Below the pieces are notes generated by a model. It saw only the letters and a program-made list of their open reading frames with translations. It was not told the DNA's origin and searched no databases. The translations under genes and the position numbers were made by a program. A stretch of 64,000 nucleotides of DNA. It comes from Candidatus Shapirobacteria bacterium. GTDB taxonomy: Bacteria > Patescibacteriota > Microgenomatia > UM-FILTER-40-11. Within the stretch, counting starts at the first letter, position 1. Every line of letters starts with the position of its first letter. The DNA lies in NCBI GenBank assembly GCA_020059745.1, contig JAGVBK010000004.1, positions 306,511 to 370,510 on the forward strand. Reading direction: 5' to 3'. Shown piece by piece: positions 7,314 through 32,784 of the stretch.

Positions 7314-7314
7314 A

Positions 7315-11563: not shown

Positions 11564-11620
11564 AACTTCGTATCTTTAATTTAAGCCTCATTTTTGGTAA
11601 AATTAGCCATAGATTTCTTT

Positions 11621-11694: not shown

Positions 11695-11785
11695 GTATAT
11701 GCACCCAAGGTGACTCGGGTGCCTCAAATAGCCCTTCTTATCTTTTCAAATCGCTATTTTCAGAAGCGAGGATTATAACCGTTCT

Positions 11786-12893: not shown

Positions 12894-13169
12894 AATATAA
12901 GGAAATTATATATCAAACGCTTTATTCGAGAGGAGCTCCGCAGACCTCTTTATTATGAATGTAAAGTTGTTTCCCGAACACTTTAGTGATTTCTCTTTTT
13001 TCTTCATCCGTGCCGTTTCTTAGAATGTGTTGGGCAAATATTAATAGCTAGAGACAAGAAGGATTTAAGGGACTGGTATTTAAGTTGAGATTTTTTTCTG
13101 AATTTCAGCGAGATTTTTAACTTCTATGTTCTTCCAATTTTGCCTCAAAAGTGCTAGGATTTAAGTCAT

Positions 13170-14873: not shown

Positions 14874-14879
14874 ATTTTT

Positions 14880-15521
14880 ATGAAAAAGAAAAAACAAACG
14901 ATAAGCAAGGAATTGAGGATGCCTCATATATATCGAGAGGATTTGGAAAAGATAGAAAATCTTATTTTAAATGAACTAAAGCCGAGAGAGTATAAAATTG
15001 AAACCAATGAATATGAGTATGAAAAGGTAGAACAATTGCAAAAAGACTTGGGAACAGCGGTAGACTTGCATGTCCAAACTTATACTCCCTACTTGAGTAT
15101 AGATTTTAATAAAAATAGTGCCAGAGTATATTCTGGCGATGACGATTTAAAAACCATGGGAGCATTTGATCAAATATTCTCAATTCTGTCTAAGAAAGAG
15201 AGAAGGGTTTTGTATTATCTATCGAAAGTTTCCGTATGGGTTGCTCCAATATTATTTTTTGCTCCTATCCGTGCGCTTGCGGAAATTGACAAAGTCGATA
15301 ACCCGAAACTTTGGGTAGTACTCGGTGTTGTACTAGTAAGCGCACTCTGGTGGGTTATCGGTTTTTACTCATCTCTTTATAAATTCTCAATAATCGATTT
15401 CACTTATTTAAAAGAGAAGCCAAACTTTATTGTACGCAATAAGGATCAAATTATTCTCGTGGTTATTGGAGCAATAATAGGGGCTATTGCAACAATTGTT
15501 TTTAATAAGATACTTTTTTAA
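14880..15521 (+). CDS. Hypothetical membrane protein inserted between mod and res
   Basis: 213-aa ORF. Hydrophilic N-terminal ~110 aa, then 2-3 predicted TM helices (VWVAPILFFAPI…, LWVVLGVVLVSALWWVIGF…, IILVVIGAIIGAIATIVF). Lies 6 bp after mod and 3 bp before res. Confidence 0.5.
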   Translation: MKKKKQTISKELRMPHIYREDLEKIENLILNELKPREYKIETNEYEYEKVEQLQKDLGTAVDLHVQTYTPYLSIDFNKNSARVYSGDDDLKTMGAFDQIFSILSKKERRVLYYLSKVSVWVAPILFFAPIRALAEIDKVDNPKLWVVLGVVLVSALWWVIGFYSSLYKFSIIDFTYLKEKPNFIVRNKDQIILVVIGAIIGAIATIVFNKILF

Positions 15522-15524
15522 GCT

Positions 15525-17750: not shown

Positions 17751-17756
17751 GAATCT

Positions 17757-19559
17757 ATGAAAATCAATAAACTAATTCTGGACAATTTTAGAAATTTCCA
17801 GGATAAGATTGCTGTTGATTTTAATAGCCTTACAGTTGTTATTGGGAAAAACGATTTAGGTAAATCTACTATTCTCGAGGCATTGGATATATTTATCAAT
17901 GAAGGCTCCTCTTTAGTCAAGCTTGATAAAGATGACGCGTGTAAAAGATCTCAATCAGATGAATTTTCGATAGGCGTTGTTTTTTCAGAGTATCCTGAAA
18001 GAGTTGATATTGACGAAGGCAACCAAACTTCTTTGGAAGATGAGTATCTATTAAACCGAGACAGTTTATTGGAAATTCATAAGCATTATAAAAATGGAAA
18101 ATGTACTGGTGTTTATATTCACGCATTGCACCCTACTACTGAAGAAGCAAAAGATCTATTACTAAAAAAGCAGCAAGAGTTAAAGAAAATCGTTGAAGAT
18201 AATGGCTACGCTTGTGACAACAAAACAAAAAATGCCTCTTTACGTAAAGTCATACGAGAAGGTGTTGGAGATTTAAAGTTAGAAGAAATTGATATACCTG
18301 TTAACGAAGAAGATGCTAAAAGGATATGGGGAAAACTACAAACTTATTTGCCAGTATATGCATTGTTCCAGTCCGATAGAGCAAATAAAGATGAGGATCG
18401 AGAAGTCCAAGATCCGATGAAATTAGCGATAAAAGAAATATTACAAAAGGAAGATTTGCAGGAAAAACTAAGAGGTATAGCTAATGAAGTTGAAGAGATT
18501 TCTAAAGAGATTGCACACAAGACGCTTGAAAAATTGGCCGAAATGAACCCTGATATTGCTAGAGAGCTTAAACCAGTTATTCCTCCATGCTCTGACTTAA
18601 AATGGGATTCTGTTTTTAAGAATATTGAGATATCAAGCGATGATGGTGTGCCGCTAAATAAACGTGGAAGCGGTGTTAGAAGGTTAGTTTTGTTAAACTT
18701 TTTTAGAGCAAGAGCGGAAGAACAAAGGAATCTAGACTCAAAATCAAATGTAGTGTATGCAATCGAGGAGCCAGAAACATCACAACACCCCAACCATCAA
18801 AAGATACTTATCAAAGCACTGAAAGATTTGGCCGATCAAGAAGGAAGACAAATTTTTATAACGACACATAGTCCTTCGTTAGTTCAATTGTTACCAAAAG
18901 ATTGTGTGCGCTTGTTATGCAAGAAAGACGGAAATCTTGAAATTATTAGTGGAGACTTGGCAATTTCAGACATAATAGACGATTTGGGTGTTCTTCCAAT
19001 AATCGGTAAGGTTGCAGTCTTTGTTGAAGGAGAAACTGACAGAGAGTTTCTGCTAAATATCGGTGCAATAAACGAGTTAAAACAAATTATTGATATTAGT
19101 AAGATCTCAATAATACCGCTTGGTGGAAGCACGCTTGAAAGATGGATAAATAGAAACTATTTAGACGGATCAAATATTGTTGAATTTCATCTATATGACA
19201 AAGACAGTGATGAAAAGTACAAAGAAGCAGTAAGCAAGATCAACGAAAGAGCCGACAACTCAAAAGGGCAGTTAACGAAATCGCTAGAAATTGAAAATTA
19301 TATTCATCCCTCGCTCGTTGAAGGATGTGATAGGCTTTCTAGTATTTCATGCACTTCGATAAAAAGCCAGTGGAAGAATAAAGACATACCTCAATTTGTC
19401 TCGCAAAAAACTGGGATTGACGAATTGGTAGTAAAAGAAATTCTTTGTTGCTCTCTATCAAAGAAGATGAATAAGCAATTGATGGAGGAGATTAACATTT
19501 GGGATGAGGTTGAAGGTTGGTTTGAAAGTGTTAAGAGTATGACTGAGCAAACAAGATAA
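17757..19559 (+). CDS. OLD-family ATP-dependent endonuclease (ABC-type ATPase + Toprim)
   Basis: Walker A GKNDLGKST. OLD-type Walker B/D-loop (VVYAIEEPETSQHP). C-terminal Toprim (VFVEGETDREFL … YDKDSDEKY, giving E…DxD). 600 aa. Confidence 0.85.
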   Translation: MKINKLILDNFRNFQDKIAVDFNSLTVVIGKNDLGKSTILEALDIFINEGSSLVKLDKDDACKRSQSDEFSIGVVFSEYPERVDIDEGNQTSLEDEYLLNRDSLLEIHKHYKNGKCTGVYIHALHPTTEEAKDLLLKKQQELKKIVEDNGYACDNKTKNASLRKVIREGVGDLKLEEIDIPVNEEDAKRIWGKLQTYLPVYALFQSDRANKDEDREVQDPMKLAIKEILQKEDLQEKLRGIANEVEEISKEIAHKTLEKLAEMNPDIARELKPVIPPCSDLKWDSVFKNIEISSDDGVPLNKRGSGVRRLVLLNFFRARAEEQRNLDSKSNVVYAIEEPETSQHPNHQKILIKALKDLADQEGRQIFITTHSPSLVQLLPKDCVRLLCKKDGNLEIISGDLAISDIIDDLGVLPIIGKVAVFVEGETDREFLLNIGAINELKQIIDISKISIIPLGGSTLERWINRNYLDGSNIVEFHLYDKDSDEKYKEAVSKINERADNSKGQLTKSLEIENYIHPSLVEGCDRLSSISCTSIKSQWKNKDIPQFVSQKTGIDELVVKEILCCSLSKKMNKQLMEEINIWDEVEGWFESVKSMTEQTR

Positions 19560-19562
19560 CTT

Positions 19563-20330
19563 ATGAGTCAATATTACAATCCAAACAGAACAAGAAATAT
19601 TTATGATCCAAAATCTAGCGAGTTGTTTCGCCTGAGTCGTGGAAAGATAGACAATTTCATTACGTGCCCACGTTGTTTTTATCTTGACCGGAAACTGGGA
19701 ATTGCTCAGCCTCCCGGATATCCTTTTTCTCTTAATTCCGCTGTCGATAAACTTCTCAAAAAAGAACTTGATATTCACCGAGCAAAGGGGACACCACATC
19801 CTTTAATGAAAACTTACGGTGTCGATGCAATTCCTTTAACTCACGAAAAAATTGAAGAATGGCGGGATTCGCTAAGGGGAGGGATTACTTTCAGGATAGA
19901 AGGAAGTAATGTCGTGGTAACCGGCGGAGTTGATGATATGTGGATTAATCCCCAGAGTGAATATATTGTTGTTGACTATAAAGCAACTTCCAAAGAAGAG
20001 GAAGTAACTTTAGATGCCGACTGGCAGATTGGCTATAAAAGGCAAATGGAAATTTACCAGTGGCTTTTCAGAAAGAACGGTTTTGCGGTTTCTTCGACTG
20101 GTTATTTTGTTTATTGCAATGGCAATACAGATAAGGAAGCCTTTGATGGAAAGTTGGAATTTGATATTAAGATTATTCCCTATTTAGGAGATGATTCTTG
20201 GGTTGAAAATACCATTCATGATGCAATTGATTGCTTAAACAGTAATGAGATTCCGGCTCCTGGGGCAGATTGTGATTACTGCCGGTATGTAGAAGCGGTT
20301 AGAAAAATTGATGAGGTTGCTTATGCTTAA
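19563..20330 (+). CDS. Cas4-like PD-(D/E)xK nuclease with a 4-Cys (Fe-S) cluster
   Basis: N-terminal CPRCFYL motif (as in Cas4/AddB), D…(IVVDYK) PD-(D/E)xK core, a QMEIYQWL (QxxxY) motif and a C-terminal CDYC pair. 255 aa. Begins 3 bp after the OLD gene. Confidence 0.65.
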   Translation: MSQYYNPNRTRNIYDPKSSELFRLSRGKIDNFITCPRCFYLDRKLGIAQPPGYPFSLNSAVDKLLKKELDIHRAKGTPHPLMKTYGVDAIPLTHEKIEEWRDSLRGGITFRIEGSNVVVTGGVDDMWINPQSEYIVVDYKATSKEEEVTLDADWQIGYKRQMEIYQWLFRKNGFAVSSTGYFVYCNGNTDKEAFDGKLEFDIKIIPYLGDDSWVENTIHDAIDCLNSNEIPAPGADCDYCRYVEAVRKIDEVAYA

Positions 20331-20709
20331 AAAAATTGAAACTGCCGATGAGTTTATTAAGAGGAAAACTGATGAGTTTTCTAAAAATAAATTAATTGAA
20401 ATAAAAGATATCGGTCGAAGCGGAAAACATTTTTTAGCTCGTGAAGCTTGGACTTTTATGCCACAAGGGAATTTGGGTGATAAAGTGTTTGTTATCGAAA
20501 GGTTTAGAAAAGAATCAACTGAAGGAAAAATTGCGTACACAGATTCCTGGAAGAAAGGAGATATTGAGTACCGCATCGGATATTTCATTATTGGGAAAAT
20601 TGGTAAAGCGGCTGGAAGATGGGTCTGGGGACAATATTGCCCTTTGATTCCTCATGAAGATTTAGATAAATTATTATCCAAAGCAAGGCAAGAAGGAACA
20701 CTTCTTTAA
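20323..20709 (+). CDS. Hypothetical small protein, last gene of the R-M/OLD/Cas4-like operon
   Basis: ~129-aa ORF overlapping the Cas4-like stop by 8 bp (ATG at 20323; the ORF track used an upstream TTG). No recognisable motif. Confidence 0.45.
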   Translation: MLKKIETADEFIKRKTDEFSKNKLIEIKDIGRSGKHFLAREAWTFMPQGNLGDKVFVIERFRKESTEGKIAYTDSWKKGDIEYRIGYFIIGKIGKAAGRWVWGQYCPLIPHEDLDKLLSKARQEGTLL

Positions 20710-20821
20710 ATTAAACGATTTTCGTATTTAGATAAAGAATCGAAATGAAAACAAAAAATTCTTTGAAAAACACCATGGAAGTGGGCGGTTAGTATGGGTT
20801 TATAGTACAATGACAAAATAG

Positions 20822-21745
20822 ATGAAAGAGTTACAGATTGTTTATTCGAATAATTATCTTAAATACGATCTTGGAGAAGACAATCCCATTTCCCGGGATA
20901 AAACTGGAAAGTTTTTACGATTTCTTAAAGAAGAAGGAAGCATTCCCTTCCGGGTGCATGAGGCACCGAAAGCAACCGATAGCGACATTCTTCTTGCCCA
21001 CACAGAAAGGTACTTAAACAGAGTAAGGCAGGCTGCGATAAATGGAGTCGAACTCGATCCTGATACTCCGGTTAACTTGGAAACATTAGAAGGAGCATAT
21101 TATATTGTTGGAGGAACAATTCTCTGCCTTAGTTTGGCTCTTGAAGACCAACGAGTAGTCAATATTATTGGAGGAATGCACCACTCTGGCTCATATTTCG
21201 GATCAGGATTCTGCATTTTTAACGATCATGCCATTGCTATTAGAAAGCTCCAGAAAGAAGGAAAAATTGAAAAAGTAACAGTGTATGATTTAGATGTACA
21301 TGCAGGACAGGGAACCCAAGAAATTTTTTATGAAGATCCTACGGTTTTGACCGTCTCTATCCATCAAGATCCCAATACTCTCTATCCGGGAACCGGGTTT
21401 GATTGGCAGAGAGGAAGAGGAGCTGGGCTGGGAATGAACATTAATATCCCGCTTCCCCCTGGAACTACCGAAGAAATATATCTTGAAGCTTTGGATTCAG
21501 TCTTGGAACAAACCAGAAGTTATACCTCTGATATGAGAGTTTTACTTTTGGGTGTCGATACTTATAAGGGAGATTTACTAGGCGGTTTCCGGCTAGAACA
21601 AGAAAGTTTTAGAAAAATTGGGGAAAGATTCCGTGATTTTCATAAATTAGCTGTTCTTTTCGGTGGCGGTTATTCAAGAAAAATTCCTGACTTGTGGATG
21701 AAATTTTTAGAAGGATACTTAGGAGTTCCTTCTCATATCGTCTGA
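20822..21745 (+). CDS. Histone deacetylase-family (arginase/deacetylase fold) protein
   Basis: HDAC motifs GGMHHSGSYFGSGFCIFND and DLDVHAGQGTQ (Zn ligands D-H-D). 307 aa. Confidence 0.8.
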   Translation: MKELQIVYSNNYLKYDLGEDNPISRDKTGKFLRFLKEEGSIPFRVHEAPKATDSDILLAHTERYLNRVRQAAINGVELDPDTPVNLETLEGAYYIVGGTILCLSLALEDQRVVNIIGGMHHSGSYFGSGFCIFNDHAIAIRKLQKEGKIEKVTVYDLDVHAGQGTQEIFYEDPTVLTVSIHQDPNTLYPGTGFDWQRGRGAGLGMNINIPLPPGTTEEIYLEALDSVLEQTRSYTSDMRVLLLGVDTYKGDLLGGFRLEQESFRKIGERFRDFHKLAVLFGGGYSRKIPDLWMKFLEGYLGVPSHIV

Positions 21746-22288
21746 CACGAGTTTTCTTATTTCTTCGGCTTTACTACTTTTATTCTGTTTTGCCTTTAAC
21801 TTGAGGTATTCATCTAACTCTCTTTCGATTTCTAAATTAAATCTGACGGTGGATTTATTTAACTCAACCCATTTGAGGAAATCCTCTATTATTTTTTTTA
21901 AATTTGTCTTTTTATATTTTTGTTTCTTTAAATATTTATAATAATTTGAACTAATAAAGAAATCGCTTAAGGGAGAATCTTCTACTTTATCCGAATCTTT
22001 AATTAAAAGTAACGTTGGAATATTCTTTTGAAGAGATAGAACTAGCTGCTGGCCGACTGCGGAGATATTATGCGAATATTCAAGAATTACCGCATCGGAT
22101 TCTTTAATGGCTTTTTCTGTCAGTTCATACATTTTGCTGACAGTTATTTCCTTATTACCTTTTATTTCTTCGTCAATCCAGTCTCTGGACAGTTTGTGTC
22201 CTAACAGGCATATTTGTTGACGTATTTTCAGATAATCTGTTTTGTTTTTTTTGAAACCCGGCAATGATCCCCCGAAAAAAACTTTCAT
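21719..22288 (-). CDS. Two-domain protein: N-terminal nucleoside 2-deoxyribosyltransferase-like (SLOG/Rossmann-like) domain fused to a C-terminal ribbon-helix-helix (CopG-like) domain
   Basis: N-terminus MKVFFGGSLPG … DAVILEYSHNISAVGQQLVLS resembles the NDT/TIR-like Rossmann motif pattern. C-terminus TVRFNLEIERELDEYLKLKAKQNKSSKAEEIRKLV is a canonical RHH beta-strand plus two helices. Confidence 0.4.
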   Translation of the reverse strand: MKVFFGGSLPGFKKNKTDYLKIRQQICLLGHKLSRDWIDEEIKGNKEITVSKMYELTEKAIKESDAVILEYSHNISAVGQQLVLSLQKNIPTLLLIKDSDKVEDSPLSDFFISSNYYKYLKKQKYKKTNLKKIIEDFLKWVELNKSTVRFNLEIERELDEYLKLKAKQNKSSKAEEIRKLVSDDMRRNS

Positions 22289-22324
22289 TGTCGGTATTAT
22301 ACATCATTTGCATTATTATAGGTA

Positions 22325-23827
22325 TTGCTGTACAATCAGTGTACATTTTCTATATTTATAAATGTGTCAATATTAAAGGTTATTGAAATCGGTTTTGGTC
22401 CTCATGCTAAAAGGATATATTTTCCTGCCCTGCAAGAATTAGGAAAAGAATTTAATGTTAGTCTTTCATTGGTTGTCGATCTTAAGCAACAAGAATTTGA
22501 TATAAGAGACTTTTTCTCTGACTATGCAGACAAACCAGATTTTCTTTTTGTTGATCCTTTTGAAGGAAATCTTCCTAAAGAGGTAGATGACTTTTTAAAT
22601 AATTATGTTGCCAAGCATAAAATTGATGGAGTAATAATTTCCACAGAACCCCTTTGCCATTATGCCTACGCTAAATGGGCTTTAAAAGTCGGTTTGAACA
22701 TCCTTATGGATAAACCAATTACCACTAAAAAAGAAGTGGTTACAGATTTATCAGCAGCAAAAAAAATTGAAAGTGATTATATGGAATTGTTAAAAGATTA
22801 TCTCAATCTCCAAGAACAAAAGGAAACTGTTTTCATAATTAACACCCAACGGCGTTTTCACCCTGGTTTTAATCTTGTTAATGAACTTCTCTCTGAGGTT
22901 GCCGTCAAGACCAATTGTCCGATTACAGCAATACAAGCCACTCATTGTGACGGGCAGTGGAGACTTCCAAACGAAATAGTAACACAACAATACCATCCAT
23001 ATTGCAGCGGATACGGAAAAGGCTCGCATAGCGGTTATCATATTTTTGATTCAGTTTATCAATTTTATAAGGTATCTAAATTAACAGCCAAAATAGCTGA
23101 TTCGATGGAAATTTTTAGTTCTTTTTTTCAGCCTAAGGGCTTCTTATTTCAATTAAATCAAAATGATTATGAAAAATATTTTGGAAAGGCATACTCAACA
23201 GTTAGAAAATATTCCGACAACAGACTATATAAGATGTTCTCTGGTTATGGTGAAATGGATCTTTCCGCTATTGTGAGGCTTAAAAGGGGAGAAGATTGCA
23301 TAGGGAATATAGCTATTAATCTAATGCATAACGGTTTTGCCCGAAGATCGTGGGTAAAGCCAGGAAAAGATCTTTATAAAGGAAACGGAAGAGTTAAACA
23401 TGAATATCACAACATAGAGCAAGGGCCATTTCAAAATATTCAGATTCACTCTTATCAATCAAAAGACAAACATGATACTAACACTAAAGATGATTATCTC
23501 CTCGGAGGCAACAGCCATTTTGATATTTATGTCTTTAGAAATAAAGACATAACGGGAGACAAAGATCCGTTAAAAATTTTTAGAATGTCAGACCTGAAAA
23601 AATATTGCCCAGAAGTGCAAGATGATAAATTGGCTATCGAAAGTGTTAAGCATCGAGTTGTCAAAGAATTCTTGAGTTGTTTGGTGGGTAAAAGGAGTAA
23701 AATCGAACTTACTTCTAATATCGATGATCATTTAATGCCCGTGCAAATAATGAGCGGTATTTATAGGTCACATAATAATTATATTAGAGGGTTGAATCCG
23801 TTGGTTAGATATAACTTAACTTTATGA
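22325..23827 (+). CDS. Gfo/Idh/MocA-family NAD(P)-dependent oxidoreductase
   Basis: N-terminal Rossmann dinucleotide-binding region (VIEIGFGPHAKRIYFPAL) and the family EKP-like motif (STEPLCHYAYAKWALKVGLNILMDKP). The true start is probably downstream of 22325 (a GTG near 22364). Confidence 0.55.
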   Translation: MLYNQCTFSIFINVSILKVIEIGFGPHAKRIYFPALQELGKEFNVSLSLVVDLKQQEFDIRDFFSDYADKPDFLFVDPFEGNLPKEVDDFLNNYVAKHKIDGVIISTEPLCHYAYAKWALKVGLNILMDKPITTKKEVVTDLSAAKKIESDYMELLKDYLNLQEQKETVFIINTQRRFHPGFNLVNELLSEVAVKTNCPITAIQATHCDGQWRLPNEIVTQQYHPYCSGYGKGSHSGYHIFDSVYQFYKVSKLTAKIADSMEIFSSFFQPKGFLFQLNQNDYEKYFGKAYSTVRKYSDNRLYKMFSGYGEMDLSAIVRLKRGEDCIGNIAINLMHNGFARRSWVKPGKDLYKGNGRVKHEYHNIEQGPFQNIQIHSYQSKDKHDTNTKDDYLLGGNSHFDIYVFRNKDITGDKDPLKIFRMSDLKKYCPEVQDDKLAIESVKHRVVKEFLSCLVGKRSKIELTSNIDDHLMPVQIMSGIYRSHNNYIRGLNPLVRYNLTL

Positions 23828-25182
23828 CAGATATTAGTGCAATAAAAGCTCTTGCTTTTGGCCTGCTTGATGGCGGCGGAGATATATTTACTAATTTTCC
23901 TGGATATCTGTCACACCAACTATTTTCGTCTCTGGGCGGAAAGAATACTTCTGTGAACGAAAAAACAGCTTATGAAATAGCTTGGGGGTCAAGTTTTGCT
24001 GGTAGAAGAAGTGCAGTAATGTTTAAAAATGTCGGATTAAATGTTGCTGCAGATCCTTTTTTGAACTCCATGCTTCTTGGTATAAATGCTGGTTTGGTAA
24101 TAATTGTTTTTGACGACGTTTATGTCGAGGGGTCTCAATCGCGGCAAGATTCAAGACACTATTTTAATTTTTTTAGGGGATTGTGGTTTGAGCCATATAA
24201 TGTTCAGAATGCTTATGATGTTGCTTATAAATCTTTTTCTCTTTCTGAAAAGTATAAAACACCGGTGATAATTAGGGTCACAAATCCACTTATCAATATG
24301 TCGAGTGATTTAAAAAGAAAGAAAAAGCAGAAAAAGAGTAATAAGCCTGTCTATGATCATAGAAAATTTGTTGTGCACCCTACAAACTATCTTTATCAAA
24401 GAAAAACGCTACTTAAGAAGAATGACAGAATTCAAAAGTATATTAATGGCCTATACAAGAATGTGTTTGTCGAAACAAAGGATAATTTATTTGTCTTCGG
24501 TTGTTGTGTAAATGAACAAAAAAAATACTTAAAAGATAACTATGGCAGAGTACAGTTCTTTACTTATCCTCTTCCTCAAAAGACTACTAATTTAATTAAA
24601 AAGTCGAAGAATTTAATTGTTTTAGAACAAGGCGATGATTTTGCTTGTCGTGAAGTTGGAAATTTGACGAAAAATTTGCTGTTAGGAAATAATACTGGCT
24701 CAATGCCGGATATGTCGAAAAATTATATTGTTTCTAAAAACTATGAGAAGTTATTTTCTGCAGTTAAAGCTATTCGGCCTACTTTTGTTATTGGTGACTT
24801 GGGTGAATATACCAAAGACACTTACGGAACGATAGATGCCTGCCTTTGCTTAGGTTCAAGTATTGGAGTTGCAACCGGTTGTGCTTTAGCTGGATATCAA
24901 AAGTCGTTGGTAATAACTGGAGATGGTGCTTATTTACATTCAGGCAAAAACGCATTAATGGAATCAATAGAAAGGAAAATTACGCTAAAAATTGTTGTTC
25001 TCTGCAATGGGGGATGTAGAGTAACTGGGGGTCAAAAAATTCCGGGGGATTTGTTTGATCAACCAAAGGAAGTTAGGGTTTTTAAACTTAACTATGATAA
25101 GACAACGACTGCTGTTTTCAAGGAAACTTTAAAAAAAATGATTGATTCAAAGTTTACCACCATATTATATGTTTTGATGTAA
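23824..25182 (+). CDS. Thiamine-diphosphate-dependent enzyme (Pyr + PP domains)
   Basis: C-terminal ThDP-binding motif GDGAYLHSGKNALMESIERKITLKIVVLCNGG (GDG…NG). N-terminal Pyr-domain-like region. 452 aa. Confidence 0.5.
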   Translation: MTDISAIKALAFGLLDGGGDIFTNFPGYLSHQLFSSLGGKNTSVNEKTAYEIAWGSSFAGRRSAVMFKNVGLNVAADPFLNSMLLGINAGLVIIVFDDVYVEGSQSRQDSRHYFNFFRGLWFEPYNVQNAYDVAYKSFSLSEKYKTPVIIRVTNPLINMSSDLKRKKKQKKSNKPVYDHRKFVVHPTNYLYQRKTLLKKNDRIQKYINGLYKNVFVETKDNLFVFGCCVNEQKKYLKDNYGRVQFFTYPLPQKTTNLIKKSKNLIVLEQGDDFACREVGNLTKNLLLGNNTGSMPDMSKNYIVSKNYEKLFSAVKAIRPTFVIGDLGEYTKDTYGTIDACLCLGSSIGVATGCALAGYQKSLVITGDGAYLHSGKNALMESIERKITLKIVVLCNGGCRVTGGQKIPGDLFDQPKEVRVFKLNYDKTTTAVFKETLKKMIDSKFTTILYVLM

Positions 25183-25185
25183 TCC

Positions 25186-25806
25186 ATGAAAGAAAGGCCG
25201 TATTACTTACATTTTGAAGGGATGGATCTTGCAGGAAAAACAACTGCAACTCAAAATTTTATTAAATCAACAGGGGCCGAATGGAACATAAGGAGAAATT
25301 CCCTTTCGAGAGAAAATCCAATACACTTGCTTGCTGATTCTTTAAGAAAAGCAGAAGCATATGATGCGGAAGTCTTGGGGAATTTATATGTGGCTGCCCT
25401 GATGGCAGATATTCATTCTTTTCAATGGCCAGGCAAGGATACCATCCAAGACTCAACAATTATATTAAGATCTATTGCCTTTCACACAGTTAGGGGCACA
25501 CCGAGGATCAGGGAAGTACTTCTGGATTTGTTGCCAGAGCATCCTAAATTTGATGCTTCATTTGTTTTTACCGCCAGTATTGAAAAAAGGCTTGAACGTT
25601 TGCAAAGGAGAATTGCTTTAGCTCCCCAAGAAGTTTCAGAAGAAGACATGATGGTAATAAGGAAGCCGGAGAAATTTTTGGCAATGGAAGCGGTGATGGT
25701 GGATATGGCCAAAATGGCTTTCCATTCAGTTATAGTTGATACCTCCACATTAACTCCGGACATGGTTGTTGGTGTGATTCATCAAAATTTTAGATTTGAG
25801 AAATGA
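25186..25806 (+). CDS. Thymidylate-kinase-like P-loop nucleotide kinase
   Basis: P-loop FEGMDLAGKTT (compare TMPK ExxDGxGKTT), 206 aa, with the core/LID arrangement of the dNMP kinase fold. Confidence 0.5.
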   Translation: MKERPYYLHFEGMDLAGKTTATQNFIKSTGAEWNIRRNSLSRENPIHLLADSLRKAEAYDAEVLGNLYVAALMADIHSFQWPGKDTIQDSTIILRSIAFHTVRGTPRIREVLLDLLPEHPKFDASFVFTASIEKRLERLQRRIALAPQEVSEEDMMVIRKPEKFLAMEAVMVDMAKMAFHSVIVDTSTLTPDMVVGVIHQNFRFEK

Positions 25807-27221
25807 AAGAAACTCAGCCGCAAGGATATCGCCATCTCGAGGCATTACACTATTTGGCCGGGATACCTTTTGTTGAGCATTTGGGTGTACGAGCCAATAA
25901 GGAAAAGATTTTAGAAGATTTGGGTTTTAGTAAAGGAACCAACATTGCTTTAAAAAAAGAATTCCTTTTACCAGAACCGGATGAAAATCTTTTAGGAATT
26001 GAGGATTATCTTGTTCAACAAATATCTCAAGGAAGATTTGTCGCAATGTTATTCAAGGATGGCCGTTGGGAGTCGATGGGTGGAGCGCCGGTGACTTATC
26101 TTATGGCCGAGAAGGACATCCGAGATAAATTGGTTTTTAGCAATGGGAAACTAATAGAAGTTAGTGCCCACGATGGCAAAGTACTTCAAATCGATCGTGA
26201 AATTTCCCTTCAAACATATTCTAGAAGAAAATCAATTGCTTCAACAGTGTCAGGCTTTGCAAATTACGAAGATCCTATCACTGTGAGGCTAGGTGGAGGT
26301 TTTAGACTGCAGTTAGATGATTTAGTTTTTATTGACGGTGAGCCGCACCTTTTGTTCTCCGGGCACTTTTCATTTAATGATATGGGGTCGAGAGTTTTAG
26401 CTTTATCTTGCAAAGAAGACTGTGCAGTGCCGAGATATGAAACATCATTTCTTTTAAAAATTAATAGTGGGCAATTATCTTTTATGGGTGATATGGAATT
26501 TCAAAGAGCTTCTGGCTCTTCAGGCAGTGTGAGAACGGTGGTTAATAAAGTGGTCTCAAGTTTGTTTTATCATGATGGTAAAGCTATTAGTGAGCTGACA
26601 AAGATGCTTTTAAGCGTCAAGCCAGTGATGGGGATCCATCAATTTGAGGGGATATTTAGTATTCCCAGTGAATCTGAAATAAGTGCTGAAATTATTGATT
26701 TTGATGGACTTGAAGCGTTTGATGTTGGGTTTCAAGGACTACAAATAGATCCTTCTGAGAGACTTATCCGAGGACAACTTAGAAGAGCTGGTTTTCTTAC
26801 AACTGACCCCGAAAGCCTGCTTCAATATATTGCCTATAGAAGAAGAGTTGCTGCGACCGTAGGTGAATTAATTAAATCCAGTGAAATTCCGGACGACATT
26901 AAAGAAAGACTGAGCCAACAATTTATCAATTCATTTGATCTTTTTACGCGAAACAGAACGGATCCGGTCAAACTAGGAAGATTGCTTGATACCCTGTGTC
27001 TTGATTGGGAGGATACAACTAACCCGCAAGTCAAATATTTTCGGAATGAAAATGACATGTTGATTATGTTTTCTGTTGAAGGTTTTAATCTAGCGTTTTG
27101 GAAAGACAGTGGAAAACTTGTTGATTGCTCCAATTTAAGAAAAATAGCGGCTAAATTAAGTCGGGTTGTTGGAAAAGAAATCTTGCCTGTTCATTTATCG
27201 GCATTAAAGGAAGGCGATTAG
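25803..27221 (+). CDS. Hypothetical protein (472 aa), no recognisable motifs
   Basis: Long ORF with a start overlapping the previous gene's stop. Coding-like composition. Confidence 0.45.
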   Translation: MKETQPQGYRHLEALHYLAGIPFVEHLGVRANKEKILEDLGFSKGTNIALKKEFLLPEPDENLLGIEDYLVQQISQGRFVAMLFKDGRWESMGGAPVTYLMAEKDIRDKLVFSNGKLIEVSAHDGKVLQIDREISLQTYSRRKSIASTVSGFANYEDPITVRLGGGFRLQLDDLVFIDGEPHLLFSGHFSFNDMGSRVLALSCKEDCAVPRYETSFLLKINSGQLSFMGDMEFQRASGSSGSVRTVVNKVVSSLFYHDGKAISELTKMLLSVKPVMGIHQFEGIFSIPSESEISAEIIDFDGLEAFDVGFQGLQIDPSERLIRGQLRRAGFLTTDPESLLQYIAYRRRVAATVGELIKSSEIPDDIKERLSQQFINSFDLFTRNRTDPVKLGRLLDTLCLDWEDTTNPQVKYFRNENDMLIMFSVEGFNLAFWKDSGKLVDCSNLRKIAAKLSRVVGKEILPVHLSALKEGD

Positions 27222-27270
27222 GAGATTACTAAATAACTATAATTTATTTTAATGAGTTAAAGGAGAAAAA

Positions 27271-27870
27271 ATGAATTTACCTAACTTTAAGTATTTTTAT
27301 AATAATAAAGCTAAAACTCTTGATGTAGTTTTACATGGTGGTTCTCAGGGCATGGATTCTGGATTTATAAGCAAGATTGTTGGTGCTTCAAGAAAGACTG
27401 GCAATAGCGTTGTCGCTTTTAACTTTCCCTACATTGAAAGAGGTGAAGAAAACTCCTCCGGGCCGGAATTAGTTGAGGAAATTGATGCATTGCAATCAAT
27501 TCTCGATTTTTGTCAGTCCGATAAATTTAAGTCTGTTAGATTAATTGGTAAATCTTTAGGGGGAGTTGTTGCTGGACATTATTTGAAAAAACTTAATGGA
27601 GACCAACTGAATAAATTTAGTCTGATTATTTTTGGTTATGATATTGGCTACATTGATTTAAAAAGTTTCCCCGGGAAAATTGTTATTATTCAGGGAAGTA
27701 AGGACAAATTTGGAGATATTGAAGCGGTTAAAAAGGACATGAATGGAACTGCTTCAAATGACATAACCTATTTATCTATTGAAGGAGCGGATCATAGTTA
27801 CCGAATTCCGGAAACAAAAGAACCAATCTATGAAGACGAAGCGGTGAATGTTGCTTTTGGGCGAACCTGA
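27271..27870 (+). CDS. Alpha/beta-hydrolase fold protein (dienelactone-hydrolase/esterase-like)
   Basis: Nucleophile elbow GKSLGG and a later His (DHSY) in the order expected for a Ser-Asp-His triad. 199 aa. Confidence 0.5.
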   Translation: MNLPNFKYFYNNKAKTLDVVLHGGSQGMDSGFISKIVGASRKTGNSVVAFNFPYIERGEENSSGPELVEEIDALQSILDFCQSDKFKSVRLIGKSLGGVVAGHYLKKLNGDQLNKFSLIIFGYDIGYIDLKSFPGKIVIIQGSKDKFGDIEAVKKDMNGTASNDITYLSIEGADHSYRIPETKEPIYEDEAVNVAFGRT

Positions 27871-28215
27871 AGCATTGTTAGATACGTCAAACTACATTAA
27901 CTAGTTTCTTTTTTGTACTGTCCCAAATGTCTCATTTAGCCTTGAATGTGATACACTAGTGATAGTTGCTTATGGGACTAAATGGTACTAGACCCGTATG
28001 CTCAGCCAAGACGAGCAATCACCTTAAATACTAATTATTATTCAGGTTTTGGCTGAGTTAAGTTGTTGACAACAAGGTAAAAATTGTTGTTTAATCTAAC
28101 TAGCTCTATAGCGAAAGTTGTAGGGTTAGGGGGTTTCTAGCAATAGATTCTCTCGTGAGGAGAGGCTTCAGCAATGGAGTCTCTTTTCTTTTTAGAGACC
28201 AGAGCATGCTTATTC

Positions 28216-32025: not shown

Positions 32026-32784
32026 ATGAAAAAATTGCCGGTGATTATTTTTCTTTTGGGGATTTTTGTTGTTATTCTAATTTATTTTGAGGCAAACCCG
32101 TTTTTAAAGAAGGAGCTTTCAGGGGAGAAAGAATTCTCAGCAAATGAAAAAGACTTGCTTTTGCCGGATATTGTTGTGTCTTCTCCCGCCGAGCTTTACA
32201 TTGAACAAACAGGAGAGGAAAAGAAAATCCGTTTCAGTACCACTTTTTATAACCAGGGAGAAGGCAGGCTTGAACTTGTTGGCCGAAAGGATTCCCAACG
32301 CCAGGTTATTAACGCCTCGCAAAAAATAGTTGCTGCTGATGGTTCTACGATCGAAAGAGAGGTTGGGGAATTTGTTCTTCATCCGGAACACAGCCACTGG
32401 CATGTTGAAGATTATGTTGTTTTTGAGCTTTGGAGCCTTGAAGAGGATGGGCAAAAAGATAAGCTTCTTGCTAAAACCCGGAAAATGAGCTTTTGTATTT
32501 GGGACCAGGAAGCGTTTGATTTGTCTCTTGAAGGTTCTCCCCAAAGCCCTCGCTTTTTATCCTGCAACAGCGAAACGCAAGGCTTGTCTGTTGGCTGGTC
32601 TGATACCTATCTTGCTAATGTTGAGGGTCAGGAGCTTGACATTAGCCAAATTTCTGATGGTAAGTATAGAATAACAACCTTCGTAAACCCTGACCAAAAA
32701 ATATTTGAAAGCAATTATGATAACAACAAAATAGAACTTGAGGTTGAAATAGTAAAAGACAGAATCACTATTTTAAATAACTAA
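32026..32784 (+). CDS. Secreted lysyl-oxidase-like (LOX catalytic domain-like) protein
   Basis: Signal/TM anchor. His cluster HPEHSHWHVEDY aligns with the LOX copper site (WEWHSCHQHYH). The C-terminal VNPDQKIFESNYDNN aligns with LOX …VNPSYLVPESDYTNN. A conserved Cys-pair region MSFCIW…FLSC is also present. Confidence 0.5.
   Translation: MKKLPVIIFLLGIFVVILIYFEANPFLKKELSGEKEFSANEKDLLLPDIVVSSPAELYIEQTGEEKKIRFSTTFYNQGEGRLELVGRKDSQRQVINASQKIVAADGSTIEREVGEFVLHPEHSHWHVEDYVVFELWSLEEDGQKDKLLAKTRKMSFCIWDQEAFDLSLEGSPQSPRFLSCNSETQGLSVGWSDTYLANVEGQELDISQISDGKYRITTFVNPDQKIFESNYDNNKIELEVEIVKDRITILNN

Follow-up and report, generated by a model that had tools for sequence, protein, structure and literature searches.

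A mobile operon of Candidatus Shapirobacteria with a DNPH1-like regulator, and its possible role in a nucleotide-derived small-molecule pathway

Introduction

Which pathway is encoded by the enzyme genes that adjoin a Type III restriction-modification (R-M) operon in the 64-kb window, the whole stretch of Candidatus Shapirobacteria DNA analyzed here, and does this neighbor take part in it? The first-pass annotation had proposed nucleoside- or nucleotide-type small-molecule chemistry or an R-M-linked DNA hypermodification pathway. Its gene list and domain guesses, including an "NDT-like-RHH" protein, were reproduced by Pfam, NCBIfam, PDB profile and Foldseek matches; between 20822 and 27870, seven of seven open reading frames and six of six domain calls were confirmed. 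The features are:

20822..21745, plus strand: HDAC-family zinc deacetylase/amidohydrolase gene (PF00850, 2.9e-65)
21719..22288, minus strand: regulator, 189 aa, DNPH1/nucleoside-2-deoxyribosyltransferase-like domain plus ribbon-helix-helix (profile, Pfam and structure-model searches)
22307..22336, plus strand: promoter-like element TTTGCA-18-TACAAT (consensus scan)
22329..22345, plus strand: putative operator TGTACAATCAGTGTACA, two palindromic TGTACA hexamers 11 bp apart, TGTACA-N5-TGTACA (conservation across loci)
22364..23827, plus strand: Gfo/Idh/MocA-like NAD(P) oxidoreductase, 487 aa (PF01408, 2.2e-6, above gathering score)
23824..25182, plus strand: IorA-derived ThDP-dependent enzyme, 452 aa (NCBIfam IOR_alpha, 5e-59; TPP_enzyme_C, 4.4e-10)
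25186..25806, plus strand: thymidylate-kinase-like P-loop kinase (Pfam Thymidylate_kin)
25803..27221, plus strand: 472-aa protein of an uncharacterized family (open reading frame; invariant motifs)
27271..27870, plus strand: small alpha/beta hydrolase, Abhydrolase_11 (PF20408, 2.8e-18)
28157..28188, plus strand: terminator-like hairpin, 14-bp stem followed by a T-run (consensus scan and sequence reading)

Results

Gene Organization

The conserved unit consists of the divergent regulator gene and a five-enzyme operon (22364-27870), ordered Gfo/Idh/MocA-like dehydrogenase, Fe-S-free IorA-like ThDP enzyme, thymidylate-kinase-like (Tmk-like) kinase, 472-aa protein and Abhydrolase_11 hydrolase. The five co-directional genes described earlier are joined by two 4-bp overlaps (ThDP start 23824 and Gfo stop 23827; 472-aa start 25803 and kinase stop 25806), the ThDP stop (25182) and kinase start (25186) are closely spaced, and the hydrolase start at 27271 follows the 472-aa stop at 27221 across a 49-bp gap. 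The first operon gene most likely starts at GTG 22364, in agreement with the N-termini of homologues, and not at TTG 22325, which precedes the promoter-like -10 box. Promoter-like sites are no more numerous across the region than expected by chance, and the element at 22307..22336 is to be read as a consensus match only. The hairpin sits between the operon and a convergent bipA gene.

The HDAC-family gene, previously counted as a cluster member, is indeed present, tail-to-tail with the regulator gene and overlapping it by 27 bp; it is, however, a clade-specific accessory deacetylase outside the universally conserved set. No loci other than those of the closest subclade (the window, L001/L022, L021, L023 and L028) have it beside the regulator, and the locus comparison found it absent from L004, L005, L013, L015, L019 and L029; the open reading frame upstream of it shows no conservation across loci. 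The nearest solved relatives of its product are HDAC6 catalytic domains, HDLP, acetylpolyamine amidohydrolases and HDAH.

Regulator and Putative Operator

Profile searches of the regulator against the PDB matched residues 3-138 to rat and human DNPH1 (E 3e-6) and, weakly, residues 142-188 to NikR/Arc ribbon-helix-helix proteins; this C-terminal motif spans approximately residues 145-188. Pfam detected RHH_1 in 13 and Nuc_deoxyrib_tr in 11 of 23 family members, and all top 50 PDB matches of the AF2 model (pLDDT 86) in Foldseek were DNPH1 (probability 1.00, TM 0.63-0.76). Two of the three catalytic residues of DNPH1 (Y24, D80 and E104, with roles described in PMC10603095) are substituted: Phe4 stands for Tyr, and Gln81, invariant in the family, for the Glu nucleophile; Asp65 is kept. 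At the base-contact positions the regulator carries R35-D36-W37 where DNPH1 has E55-H56; a sensor with a DNPH1 fold might also accept a sugar phosphate in place of a nucleotide. The family comprises 44 clusters in 5.8e9 proteins, its close members being 60-72% identical.

The putative operator overlaps the -10 box of the promoter-like element; five distinct loci keep it unchanged between the regulator and Gfo genes, the remaining intergenic sequence having diverged. The exact TGTACA-N5-TGTACA occurs once in the window and once each in L001/2/3/22, L019/20, L021 and L023, always at the identical intergenic position; L004 and L005, with a divergent regulator, share a different inverted repeat between the -35 and -10 boxes. 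The regulator would repress the operon in its ligand-free state, and a nucleoside-5'-monophosphate-like ligand (substrate, intermediate or product) would bind it and alter repression.

Enzymes of the Operon

The Gfo-like protein is unusually long; across nine homologues the GxGxxA Rossmann motif, LMDKP (canonical EKP) and SHSGxHxxD (canonical DxGxHxxD) are invariant. Only its Rossmann part matches solved structures, and the best NCBIfam match, to IolG, is weak (1.2e-5). The L001 homologue shares 75% identity with it, and that of the high-GC locus L038 40%; full-length homologues (32-34% identity) occur on plasmids of Streptomyces, Kitasatospora and Bacillus, either with a fused NUDIX domain (Bacillus) or with a phosphotransferase that is fused (Streptomyces) or adjacent, in regions resembling biosynthetic gene clusters that carry an NRPS-like gene, PPTase, MFS, GNAT and a PIG-L deacetylase. 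Its predicted step is the conversion of a hydroxyl group into a carbonyl on a substrate that is phosphorylated or linked to a nucleotide.

The ThDP enzyme derives from IorA, the alpha subunit of indolepyruvate:ferredoxin oxidoreductase, and is missing the ferredoxin domain; its IOR_alpha match is far below the cut-off (452 aa versus a 595-position model), and further profile matches are to 2-oxoacid:ferredoxin oxidoreductase alpha (5e-10) and to PP domains of decarboxylases and lyases. The ThDP motif GDG...N (G366, D367, N395) is invariant, whereas neither of the Fe-S ligand motifs CxxCxxCxxxC and CxxC was found in 22 family members; in contrast, outgroup IorA-like proteins have C[KT]GC, and one of them (P0158) is paired with IorB, a partner gene that is not present alongside the cassette enzyme. 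Since an Fe-S-free enzyme would be unable to pass electrons to ferredoxin, non-oxidative C-C chemistry is suggested, probably a decarboxylation, lyase or carboligation step that makes or uses an aldehyde.

Thymidylate_kin matches the window kinase just under the gathering score (1.2e-5) and 11 of 11 homologues (best 1e-10); the match to the PHROG thymidylate kinase is 1.7e-6, and that to Tmk in the PDB only E 0.014. The P-loop EGMDLxGK is invariant; in the alignment with Tmk 2plr, an invariant Ser90 replaces the Arg after the conserved Asp. The kinase is the most conserved cassette protein (86% identity to L001, versus 53% for the 472-aa protein) and would phosphorylate a phosphomonoester, NMP-like intermediate. 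The profile searches suggested in the first-pass annotation support its enzyme families; all cassette enzymes fall far below the equivalog cut-offs of characterized families.

The 472-aa protein carries the invariant motifs GGGFRLQxD, FSFNDxGSRVL, HQxEGI, ExIDFDG and a C-terminal REGD; giant repeat proteins have the same C-terminal domain. It matched no family in Pfam, NCBIfam, PADLOC or PHROGs, no sequence in the PDB and, as a model, no entry in BFVD; tblastn of plasmids and phages found no relative. The family is rare (39 clusters in 5.8e9 proteins; 78 representatives in 1.84e9). With the AF2 model (pLDDT 87.5), the best Foldseek PDB match was tubulin tyrosine ligase (E 7e-3, TM 0.2-0.29), and the modeled fold may be distantly tubulin-tyrosine-ligase/ATP-grasp-like. 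The hydrolase, with nucleophile elbow GKSLGG and weak PDB relatives among S33-type hydrolases and cinnamoyl esterases, follows the 472-aa gene in nearly all loci with downstream sequence (exception L015). The two proteins, the first possibly ATP-grasp-like, might form a final pair for ligation and ester or amide cleavage.

Distribution and Variant Cassettes

Regulator, Gfo, ThDP enzyme, kinase, 472-aa protein and hydrolase recur together at more than 10 distinct metagenomic loci, in L029 in rearranged order; since these are many independent contigs with 472-aa identities of 33-56%, the recurrence is far beyond chance. All assigned hosts of the full cassette are Patescibacteria; the cassette is horizontally mobile and almost confined to CPR/Patescibacteria, flanked from locus to locus by transposases, recombinases or different R-M systems. 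In the window, the cassette and the Type III R-M operon, with OLD gene(s) also next door, share a variable, lower-GC block next to tRNA-Gln; their adjacency reflects this shared residence and does not in itself indicate a functional link, and the Type III R-M and OLD genes are read as co-residents of a variable island and not as partners. Across homologous loci the R-M type varies or R-M is absent, and the neighboring defense genes are never the same; some variant cassettes sit among housekeeping genes.

Many relatives encode a generic SSADH/BADH-like aldehyde dehydrogenase, which follows the Gfo-ThDP pair in L008, L009, L010, L023 and L029; in L016 and L032 the gene after the pair encodes an SHMT-fold protein whose score with the fluorothreonine-transaldolase model exceeds its score with SHMT. 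Because one or the other gene follows the pair in different lineages, an aldehyde intermediate is proposed. Some loci carry the Gfo-ThDP-kinase trio but lack the 472-aa protein, among them L038, where the trio shares an operon with Csx3-AAA-like and cytidine-deaminase-like proteins; variant operons built on the Gfo-ThDP(-kinase) core contain NUDIX, HIT, cytidine-deaminase-like, ApaH-like and threonine-transaldolase-like genes and Fem/GNAT-like partners.

Discussion

The locus is best read as encoding a ligand-controlled pathway, with an aldehyde along the route, for a small molecule that is phosphorylated and derived from a nucleotide; the nucleotide or phosphate link is drawn because of the Tmk-like kinase, the NUDIX, HIT, cytidine-deaminase-like and ApaH-like neighbors, and the Gfo-NUDIX and Gfo-phosphotransferase fusions. 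With the inactivated DNPH1-like sensor, these observations lend indirect support to the nucleoside- or nucleotide-type chemistry proposed at first. That the cassette is a self-contained mobile operon for a specialized pathway to a nucleotide-derived bioactive compound, switched by a nucleotide-like ligand, is put forward tentatively, as somewhat short of an even chance; biosynthesis is favored over catabolism, and an antimetabolite for antagonism or defense is the favored product. Against this reading, secondary metabolism is sparse in CPR genomes, the cassette enzymes all score far below characterized equivalogs, and the match that points to an ATP-grasp fold for the 472-aa protein is weak. 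The window is missing both the aldehyde dehydrogenase and the threonine-transaldolase-like gene, and some variant cassettes sit among housekeeping genes, which counts against biosynthesis.

Inducible salvage, sanitation or catabolism, with an unusual nucleoside monophosphate or sugar phosphate as its substrate, is a rather unlikely but substantial alternative: the repressor would sense this compound as it comes in, the enzymes would oxidize, cleave (ThDP), re-phosphorylate and hydrolyze it, and in many relatives the generic aldehyde dehydrogenase would end the route. CPR bacteria rely on scavenged nucleotides, so that clearing or exploiting non-canonical ones would benefit them. Substrate-induced catabolic operons classically have this layout, in which the operator of a divergent ligand-binding repressor lies on the -10 box. 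Together, a dehydrogenase, a ThDP enzyme, a kinase and an aldehyde dehydrogenase recall the myo-inositol (iol) route, as does the weak IolG match; the housekeeping neighborhoods of some variants fit, and DNPH1 itself sanitizes the nucleotide pool (PMC10603095). Against this stand the biosynthetic hallmarks of the variants (threonine-transaldolase-like and Fem/GNAT-like partners) and of the surroundings of the Gfo-NUDIX fusion (NRPS-like, PPTase, MFS), a conserved set without transporter or nucleosidase, the rarity of the 472-aa family, and two features of the 472-aa protein that are uncommon in core enzymes of catabolism, namely its much faster evolution than the kinase and its repeat-protein domain. 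A role without nucleotides in ordinary metabolism of sugars, cyclitols or aromatic 2-oxo acids, for example from 2-hydroxy acid to 2-oxo acid (Gfo), aldehyde (ThDP decarboxylase) and acid (aldehyde dehydrogenase), with a sugar phosphate as the target of kinase and sensor, appears improbable. Sugars are the usual substrates of Gfo/Idh/MocA enzymes, the ThDP enzyme descends from indolepyruvate oxidoreductase, an aldehyde dehydrogenase is often next in line, and the nucleotide evidence is all indirect; yet no enzyme reaches the equivalog cut-off of a central pathway, and this reading has no ready account of five independent associations with nucleotides or phosphate: the DNPH1-like sensor, the Tmk-like kinase, the NUDIX and HIT neighbors, the cytidine-deaminase-like and ApaH-like neighbors, and the Gfo fusions.

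Anti-phage defense acting on the nucleotide pool, in which the regulator would detect an infection-specific nucleotide and the enzymes would deplete it or make a replication poison, is quite improbable, even with the L038 operon in its favor. Some phages make 5-hydroxymethyl-dUMP. This nucleotide is the preferred DNPH1 substrate according to two reports (PMC10483697, PMC12751057). None of the seven proteins, however, significantly matched the PADLOC defense families (the sole match, of the Gfo protein, has E 0.0078 and 13.9 bits), recombinases and transposases are as common next door as the ever-changing defense genes, whose co-location follows from residence in variable islands, and variants also sit among housekeeping genes; an obvious abortive-infection effector is missing, and transcriptional derepression would be slow for a defense response. 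DNA hypermodification or a non-canonical base pathway coupled to the R-M system can draw on the adjoining Type III operon and on the Tmk-like kinases that phage hypermodification pathways include; it is nevertheless highly improbable, and this part of the first-pass annotation is not supported. The conserved set has no DNA-acting transferase, glycosylase, TGT/DpdA-like or DNA-binding enzyme, R-M is inconstant across loci, and neither IMG/VR contigs (472-aa, ThDP and Gfo proteins) nor 50,697 GenBank phage records (472-aa and Gfo-like proteins) yielded homologues.

Among known systems, inducible catabolic operons just as typically combine a divergent substrate-sensing repressor with a dehydrogenase, a ThDP enzyme, a kinase and an aldehyde dehydrogenase, a point against the biosynthetic reading. 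The natural Glu-to-Gln change of the regulator parallels the engineered E104Q variant of human DNPH1, which is inactive but retains hmdUMP binding (PMC10603095), and the variant cassettes in which a transaldolase-like gene follows the Gfo-ThDP pair resemble obafluorin biosynthesis, where a ThDP decarboxylase supplies the aldehyde to such a transaldolase (PMC5490192).

Gene Organization and Domain Assignments

The cassette combines a divergently transcribed regulator gene with a five-gene operon; the gene of an HDAC-family protein lies next to the regulator gene:

20822-21745, + strand: HDAC-family protein (PF00850, 2.9e-65)
21719-22288, - strand: 189-aa regulator
22364-23827, + strand: Gfo/Idh/MocA-like (Gfo-like) protein (PF01408, 2.2e-6)
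23824-25182, + strand: ThDP enzyme (TPP_enzyme_C, 4.4e-10; IOR_alpha, 5e-59)
25186-25806, + strand: kinase (Thymidylate_kin, 1.2e-5)
25803-27221, + strand: 472-aa protein
27271-27870, + strand: small hydrolase, a minimal alpha/beta hydrolase (Abhydrolase_11, 2.8e-18)
28157-28188: strong hairpin with T-run ahead of the convergent bipA gene (consensus match only)

The open reading frames of the first-pass annotation were confirmed at these coordinates, and profile searches reproduced all of its domain guesses; its TTG start at 22325 for the first operon gene should probably be replaced by the GTG at 22364, since the latter yields the same N-terminus as in the homologs and lies downstream of a promoter-like -10 box. 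Four consecutive operon genes overlap or almost abut (stop/start positions 23827/23824, 25182/25186, and 25806/25803), and the fifth, the hydrolase gene, follows the 472-aa gene after 49 bp (27221/27271). Searches of all seven proteins against Pfam, NCBIfam, PADLOC, and PHROGs yielded no pathway-level assignment, and the 472-aa protein had no match in any of these databases; an Rfam scan of the 20-29 kb region returned no riboswitch or other RNA element. Neither an aldehyde dehydrogenase gene nor a remnant of one was found in the window. The ORF upstream of the HDAC gene is not conserved among the loci and was rejected as a cassette member. A 133-aa ORF with a TTG start (20308-20709), which overlaps the end of a nuclease gene and may not be a gene, had no family match and no homolog in any fetched locus. 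Further downstream, a lysyl-oxidase domain (PF01186, 1.9e-19), unusual for a Microgenomates genome, is present in the 252-aa protein encoded at 32026-32784.

Conservation and Variants of the Cassette

Relatives of the 472-aa protein are few: 39 among 5.8 billion protein clusters, and 78 among 1.84 billion representatives in an exhaustive profile search. Its four named genome matches, with hosts taken from MAG labels, all fall within the Patescibacteria (two Saccharimonadales, one Shapirobacteria, and one "Patescibacteria group"). A neighborhood recurs on other contigs (here numbered with the prefix L), consisting of a gene for a protein of ~189 aa on the opposite strand, followed by the Gfo-like, ThDP, kinase, 472-aa, and Abhydrolase_11 genes; this set is still found where the identity of the 472-aa protein is 33-39%. 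In locus L029 the same genes are distributed over both strands, a rearranged order that argues for functional and not merely inherited linkage. Between the window and L001, sequence identity is 86% for the kinase, 77% for the hydrolase, 75% for the Gfo-like protein, 69% for the HDAC protein, 68% for the regulator, 58% for the ThDP enzyme, and only 53% for the 472-aa protein.

The composition of the cassette varies among loci. L019 carries the regulator, Gfo-like, ThDP, kinase, and hydrolase genes without the 472-aa gene; L015 has two tandem kinase paralogs and lacks the hydrolase; L013 retains only the kinase, 472-aa, and hydrolase genes (3811-12018), without Gfo-like or ThDP genes. The arrangement in L013 suggests a module swap. 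A remnant of the Gfo-like N-terminus (85 aa) lies 5 kb upstream of the L013 trio, with glycosyltransferase, radical-SAM, APH, histidine-phosphatase, and RNase T genes in between. Deletion remnants of the cassette are found in L028 (573-2801) and L010 (9941-12680). In L028, the HDAC and regulator genes are joined straight to residue ~202 of the 472-aa gene; in L010, the C-terminal half of the 472-aa gene, the hydrolase gene, and an aldehyde dehydrogenase gene remain among housekeeping genes. Only in the closest subclade (the window, L001, L021, L023, and L028) does the HDAC gene occur with the cassette. L008, L009, L010, and L023 have an aldehyde dehydrogenase of ~458 aa after the hydrolase; another occurs inside the rearranged L029, and a 104-aa stump is present in L001.

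Genomic Surroundings

Upstream of the cassette, the window carries a tRNA gene and a run of Type III restriction-modification (R-M) and nuclease genes:

11621-11694: tRNA-Gln
13170-14873: Type III R-M, mod
15525-17750: Type III R-M, res
17757-19559: OLD-family ATPase-TOPRIM protein (best PADLOC match AriA, 2e-70; many GajA matches)
19563-20330: Cas4-like PD-(D/E)XK nuclease

The region 13170-20330 looks like a composite R-M/OLD operon. The res, OLD-family, and Cas4-like nuclease genes mutually abut behind mod; a 213-aa ORF between mod and res (14880-15521) had no family match. Together with the cassette, the R-M/OLD and Cas4-like genes fall into a block of lower GC content (11700-28200; 0.345-0.39, vs. 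0.40-0.42 outside), and tRNA-Gln is positioned exactly at its left edge. The block has the look of a genomic island next to a tRNA gene; a search for att-like direct repeats at its bounds found none. The flanks are not alike at any locus compared: they carry an IS element in L001, serine recombinases in L021 and L019, an rve transposase in L029, integrase fragments in L015, a 1336-aa T5orf172-ResIII-Eco57I enzyme in L023, and an Mrr fragment in L004. Since the flanks differ from locus to locus and the cassette shares the lower-GC block next to tRNA-Gln, the cassette is a conserved mobile unit and cargo of the flexible genome; it often resides in islands with defense genes, yet it has no fixed defense partner.

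The Regulator and Its Putative Operator

The 189-aa regulator belongs to a highly conserved family of 44 clusters. Over residues 3-138, the family profile matches DNPH1 of rat and human (E 3e-6), and residues 142-188 give weak matches to NikR/Arc ribbon-helix-helix profiles (E 0.2-0.7); among 23 family members, Pfam recognizes RHH_1 in 13 (best 0.0034) and Nuc_deoxyrib_tr in 11. The top 50 Foldseek matches of the AF2 model (pLDDT 86) are all DNPH1 (prob 1.00, TM 0.63-0.76); the ribbon-helix-helix strand appears as a helix in this monomer model. The regulator thus has the DNPH1/Rcl fold in its N-terminal 140 residues, and differs by the addition of a putative ribbon-helix-helix DNA-binding domain. 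The catalytic triad of DNPH1 consists of Y24, D80, and E104, with Glu as the nucleophile, and the inactivating E104Q mutant was used to trap bound hmdUMP (PMC10603095). The DNPH1 segments VYFCGS and GVGYELG align to VFFGGS and AVGQQL in the regulator, with Phe4 replacing Tyr and Gln81, invariant in 23 sequences, replacing the nucleophile Glu; the general-acid Asp is retained as Asp65 (equivalent to D80). Assignment of the regulator to the enzymes DNPH1 or nucleoside 2-deoxyribosyltransferase was rejected, since the Tyr-Asp-Glu triad is missing although the fold is present. As Gln81 corresponds to the inactive, hmdUMP-trapping E104Q exchange, the regulator appears to be a natural binding-competent, catalysis-dead DNPH1 and, by its residue pattern, a sensor pseudoenzyme instead of a hydrolase. 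Saccharimonadales-type regulators (26-27% identical) have Gly-Tyr-Ile at the Gln81 site, with Ile in place of the nucleophile Glu. The base-contacting E55-H56 of DNPH1 is replaced by R35-D36, followed by the invariant W37; the ligand of the regulator is therefore probably not hmdUMP itself. No relevant report of a DNPH1-RHH regulator was found in the literature searched.

The intergenic region between the regulator and Gfo-like genes contains TGTACAATCnnTGTACA, which is invariant in five distinct loci within diverged surrounding sequence. The 64-kb window has a single exact TGTACA-N5-TGTACA, at 22329-22345, and every locus with a close regulator homolog likewise has one, at the same position; this putative operator overlaps the -10 hexamer of the promoter-like TTTGCA-18-TACAAT (promoter and terminator were called by consensus matching only). 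Ribbon-helix-helix proteins of the CopG/Arc/MetJ kind bind repeated operator half-sites, a role that the tandem TGTACA hexamers may have here. Loci with divergent regulators share a different inverted repeat, located between their own TTGACT and TATTAT boxes; such a joint change of repeat and regulator clade is what a repressor and its cognate operator would be expected to show. A second conserved element, GGTATTATAC (22293-22303), lies 5-15 bp upstream of the regulator start codon and reads on the minus strand as the extended -10-like TGTATAAT; such a box would imply a leaderless regulator transcript.

Predicted Functions of the Cassette Enzymes

Members of the Gfo/Idh/MocA family are characterized by the catalytic Lys of an EKP motif and by a C-terminal DxGxHxxD motif. 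The Gfo-like protein scored 28.8 bits against PF01408 (gathering score 24) and carries a GxGxxA Rossmann motif with G10, G12, and A15 invariant in nine homologs; its invariant LMDKP and SHSGxHxxD resemble the EKP and DxGxHxxD motifs, with Glu changed to Asp and Asp to His. These motifs would fit an active Gfo/Idh/MocA dehydrogenase. The C-terminal 300 residues are extremely conserved; the C-terminal part had no match to a Pfam C-terminal domain, and PDB matches cover the Rossmann part only.

The ThDP enzyme is clearly derived from IorA, the alpha subunit of indolepyruvate:ferredoxin oxidoreductase, which in IorAB bears a 2x[4Fe-4S] ferredoxin domain and a proximal cluster; it scored 200 bits against IOR_alpha, its best family match, where the cut-off is 651. 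The diphosphate/Mg-binding motif of ThDP enzymes, GDG-X(24-30)-N(N), is intact: G366, D367, N395, and the Pyr-domain E46 are invariant in 25 sequences, and a GDG...N pattern matches the window enzyme and most relatives. With IorA and the 2-oxoacid:ferredoxin oxidoreductases it has in common the order of Pyr domain, domain II, and PP domain; it differs in being ~140 residues shorter, in lacking the ferredoxin domain, and in its translational coupling to the Gfo-like gene. Neither CxxCxxCxxxC nor CxxC occurs in the window enzyme or 21 relatives, and no IorB gene (PF01558) is present in the window or any cassette locus; outgroup IorA-like proteins carry C[KT]GC, and one of them (P0158) adjoins IorB. 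Lacking both the clusters and IorB, the enzyme could not work as an oxidoreductase that reduces ferredoxin; it would reasonably be a decarboxylase, lyase, or carboligase with non-oxidative chemistry.

The kinase is Tmk-like in fold, with Thymidylate_kin recognized in 11 of 11 homologs and a P-loop of the form EGMDLxGK. It was rejected as a Tmk ortholog: it scored 21 bits against the dTMP kinase model TIGR00041 (cut-off 83) and 25.6 against the Pfam model (27), and an invariant Ser90 replaces, in the alignment, the Arg after the conserved Asp of Tmk 2plr, which is the Arg of the DR(Y/H) motif. The HDAC protein belongs to the HDAC/acetylpolyamine amidohydrolase family: it matches PF00850 above the gathering score and essentially over its full length (221 bits, residues 24-287 of 307), with PDB relatives at 1e-44 to 1e-25.

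The 472-aa Protein

Invariant motifs of the 472-aa protein include GGGFRLQxD, FSFNDxGSRVL, HQxEGI, ExIDFDG, and a C-terminal REGD. Searches for relatives gave nothing significant in PDB sequences, in Foldseek against PDB or BFVD, or by tblastn against plasmids and phages, and none of ten tested relatives from the profile search (78 of 1.84e9) contained a Pfam domain. The AF2 model is confident (pLDDT 87.5), and its one recurring structural resemblance, a weak one, is to tubulin tyrosine ligase (TTL; Foldseek PDB, E 7e-3, TM 0.2-0.29), which is an ATP-grasp enzyme. ATP-grasp ligases have three domains, a Gly-rich loop, and acidic Mg2+ ligands on two neighboring strands of the C-domain. In the model, the invariant E282, D299, and D301 are located on a beta-hairpin, a placement that we take to resemble the ATP-grasp Mg ligands of TTL; an ATP-grasp-like nature of the protein would be a weak structural lead only. 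The last ~130 residues, with the REGD end, also form the C-terminus of repeat proteins of 750-1170 aa. In P0248, P0253, and related proteins of this kind, "NLEKFxxIDxxWL" repeats of ~38 aa are present and Pfam domains absent; one REGD-ended repeat protein stands alone beside alaS (L037, 8001-11207), and the neighborhood of the giant REGD-domain protein was uninformative. A 425-aa GNAT protein (L032) and a 435-aa hypothetical protein of Streptomyces clusters were rejected as distant homologs of the 472-aa protein (hhalign prob 0.1-0.3%).

A Wider Gfo-ThDP(-Kinase) Module

The ThDP family extends beyond the cassette, with about 1000 matches. In L016-18, a divergent HIT/cupin/NUDIX set is followed by Gfo-like, ThDP, and SHMT-fold genes; in L032, Gfo-like, ThDP, and kinase genes are found with an SHMT-fold gene, the 425-aa GNAT gene, and a NUDIX gene among housekeeping genes. 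The SHMT-fold proteins scored better against a fluorothreonine-transaldolase model (3e-67, 4e-84) than against SHMT (2.6e-55, 1.5e-59), all below cut-off, so that the transaldolase assignment follows from relative model score far below cut-off. L038 (3193-10430; GCA_013328895.1) belongs to a high-GC genome with proteins unlike those of CPR bacteria; its operon encodes a Csx3-AAA-like protein (PADLOC Csx3, 1e-9), a 476-aa cytidine-deaminase-like protein, Gfo-like protein, ThDP enzyme, and kinase (40, 36, and 39% identical to the window, respectively), and an ApaH-like metallophosphoesterase. RmuC and UvrD/PD-(D/E)XK genes lie downstream of this operon.

A long Gfo-like subfamily on actinomycete and Bacillus plasmids is 32-34% identical to the window protein over 96-99% of its length (plasmid records L040, 8992-11547; L041, 9010-10791; L042; L043). 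In all three actinomycete records examined (two Streptomyces, one Kitasatospora) a phosphotransferase comes straight after the Gfo-like gene, in one of them fused to it (851 aa), and a PIG-L deacetylase is nearby; the Kitasatospora record also has a NUDIX gene. GNAT proteins and LLM and Ldh-family oxidoreductases are further members of these actinomycete clusters. The Gfo-like protein of Bacillus tropicus carries a fused NUDIX domain whose Nudix box is intact, and its neighbors are an NRPS-like adenylation protein, a histidine phosphatase, a PPTase, and an MFS transporter. The plasmid clusters resemble the window in the Gfo-like protein followed by or fused to a kinase, in the presence of a deacetylase (PIG-L there, HDAC here), and in NUDIX genes nearby; they differ in lacking the ThDP enzyme, the Tmk-like kinase (an APH-type enzyme is found instead), and the 472-aa protein, and in having GntR in place of the DNPH1-RHH regulator.

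Pathway Interpretation

An aldehyde-consuming enzyme, either an aldehyde dehydrogenase or a threonine-transaldolase-like protein depending on lineage, repeatedly follows the Gfo-ThDP pair, and phosphate or nucleotide functions always surround the module: a dNMP-fold sensor, Tmk-like or APH-type kinases, NUDIX and HIT proteins, and also cytidine-deaminase-like, ApaH-like, and histidine phosphatase proteins. On the strength of these partners and surroundings, both guilt-by-association arguments, the operon is read as a ligand-controlled route. A phosphorylated, probably nucleotide-derived substrate would be oxidized first and rebuilt by ThDP chemistry via an aldehyde or keto intermediate; it would next receive a phosphate, and the finishing steps would fall to the 472-aa protein and the hydrolase. 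We tentatively favor synthesis of a bioactive nucleotide-like compound as the purpose of this route, a tilt that comes from the variant partners, namely the transaldolase, the Fem/GNAT-like protein, and the NRPS-like, PPTase, and MFS neighbors. The main rival is that an unusual nucleotide is salvaged or sanitized in an inducible manner; this reading agrees with the layout of the repressor as well as with CPR biology and, with the variant partners pointing to biosynthesis, is considered possible and rather unlikely. Plain sugar or 2-oxo-acid metabolism appears improbable. No cassette component passes as a member of a characterized orthologous family.

The proximity to R-M genes had led the first-pass annotation to consider a non-canonical base or nucleotide modification. 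A DNA hypermodification pathway, like those for phage thymidine/cytosine hypermodification or the Dpd type, is now a most improbable reading: such clusters occur in phage genomes or with a DNA-targeting enzyme, the conserved set contains no DNA- or dNMP-base-modifying transferase or hydroxymethylase domain (Pfam, NCBIfam), and IMG/VR viral contigs gave no relatives for the 472-aa, ThDP, and Gfo-like proteins, nor did GenBank phages for the 472-aa and Gfo-like proteins. A dedicated defense system would share with nucleotide-pool defense (dCTP deaminase/AvcD-type, dGTPase) and PADLOC candidates the location in variable islands near R-M genes and a nucleotide-kinase-like component, and one distant variant has cytidine-deaminase-like and Csx3-AAA-like proteins; unlike those systems, the window cassette has no deaminase or NTPase. 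None of the seven proteins was significant in PADLOC-DB v2, where the sole match was that of the Gfo-like protein to DHH_CorA (E 0.0078, 13.9 bits), and we know of no counterpart of multi-enzyme redox/ThDP chemistry among described defense systems; a defense role is accordingly rated as distinctly unlikely. In a metabolite-triggered, chemical form of defense, the dead-DNPH1 repressor would sense a nucleotide confined to infection or invasion, such as a hydroxymethylated dNMP made by a phage, the kind of natural substrate that DNPH1 has; the derepressed enzymes would oxidize the nucleotide (a hydroxymethyl group or a sugar hydroxyl becoming a carbonyl), followed by ThDP elaboration and phosphorylation, and the product would stop phage DNA synthesis or drain a phage-specific precursor, with the fast-evolving 472-aa protein as the step under arms-race pressure. 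This scenario as a whole, from infection sensing to enzyme derepression, seems very improbable.

CPR bacteria, or Patescibacteria, have tiny genomes with very little recognizable specialized metabolism; a conserved, mobile, tightly regulated cassette of six to eight genes is unexpected in such genomes, and provides a defined entry point into what CPR epibionts make or detoxify. Three parts are of wider interest: a transcription factor that uses a natural pseudo-DNPH1 to sense its ligand and whose operator is easy to test; an IorA lineage without any Fe-S cluster whose pairing with a dehydrogenase implies new ThDP chemistry; and a family of 472-aa proteins whose strong motifs look catalytic and for which 1.8 billion representative proteins include no detectable relatives. 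Should the product be a nucleotide analog, it would represent a new antimetabolite scaffold; if the pathway sanitizes non-canonical nucleotides, it would show pool protection in nucleotide-scavenging bacteria.

Comparison with Known Systems

The myo-inositol iol operon consists of IolG (Gfo/Idh/MocA), IolD (ThDP), IolC (kinase), and IolA (aldehyde dehydrogenase) under the repressor IolR. The cassette likewise places these enzyme classes under a repressor that would respond to a substrate, and IolG is the weak best NCBIfam match of the Gfo-like protein; yet the ThDP enzyme is IorA-like vs. acetolactate-synthase-like, the kinase is P-loop Tmk-like vs. PfkB, the repressor is not homologous, equivalents of IolE, IolB, and IolJ are missing, and the scores are far below cut-offs, so that the likeness is one of analogy only. 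In obafluorin biosynthesis, the ThDP 2-oxoacid decarboxylase ObaH passes a reactive aldehyde to the SHMT-like L-threonine transaldolase ObaG (PMC5490192). Variant cassettes follow a similar logic, by placing a fluorothreonine-transaldolase-like SHMT-fold gene, likened also to the transaldolases LipK and FTase, straight after the Gfo-ThDP(-kinase) genes; they differ in that the ThDP enzyme is IorA-like, not PDC-like, and a transaldolase is missing from the window cassette. Neither PADLOC nor the literature searched contained the gene combination. Enzyme operons under a repressor are a familiar kind of element on mobile islands; the new parts are the pseudo-DNPH1-RHH regulator, the Fe-S-free IorA paired with a long Gfo-like dehydrogenase, and the orphan 472-aa family.
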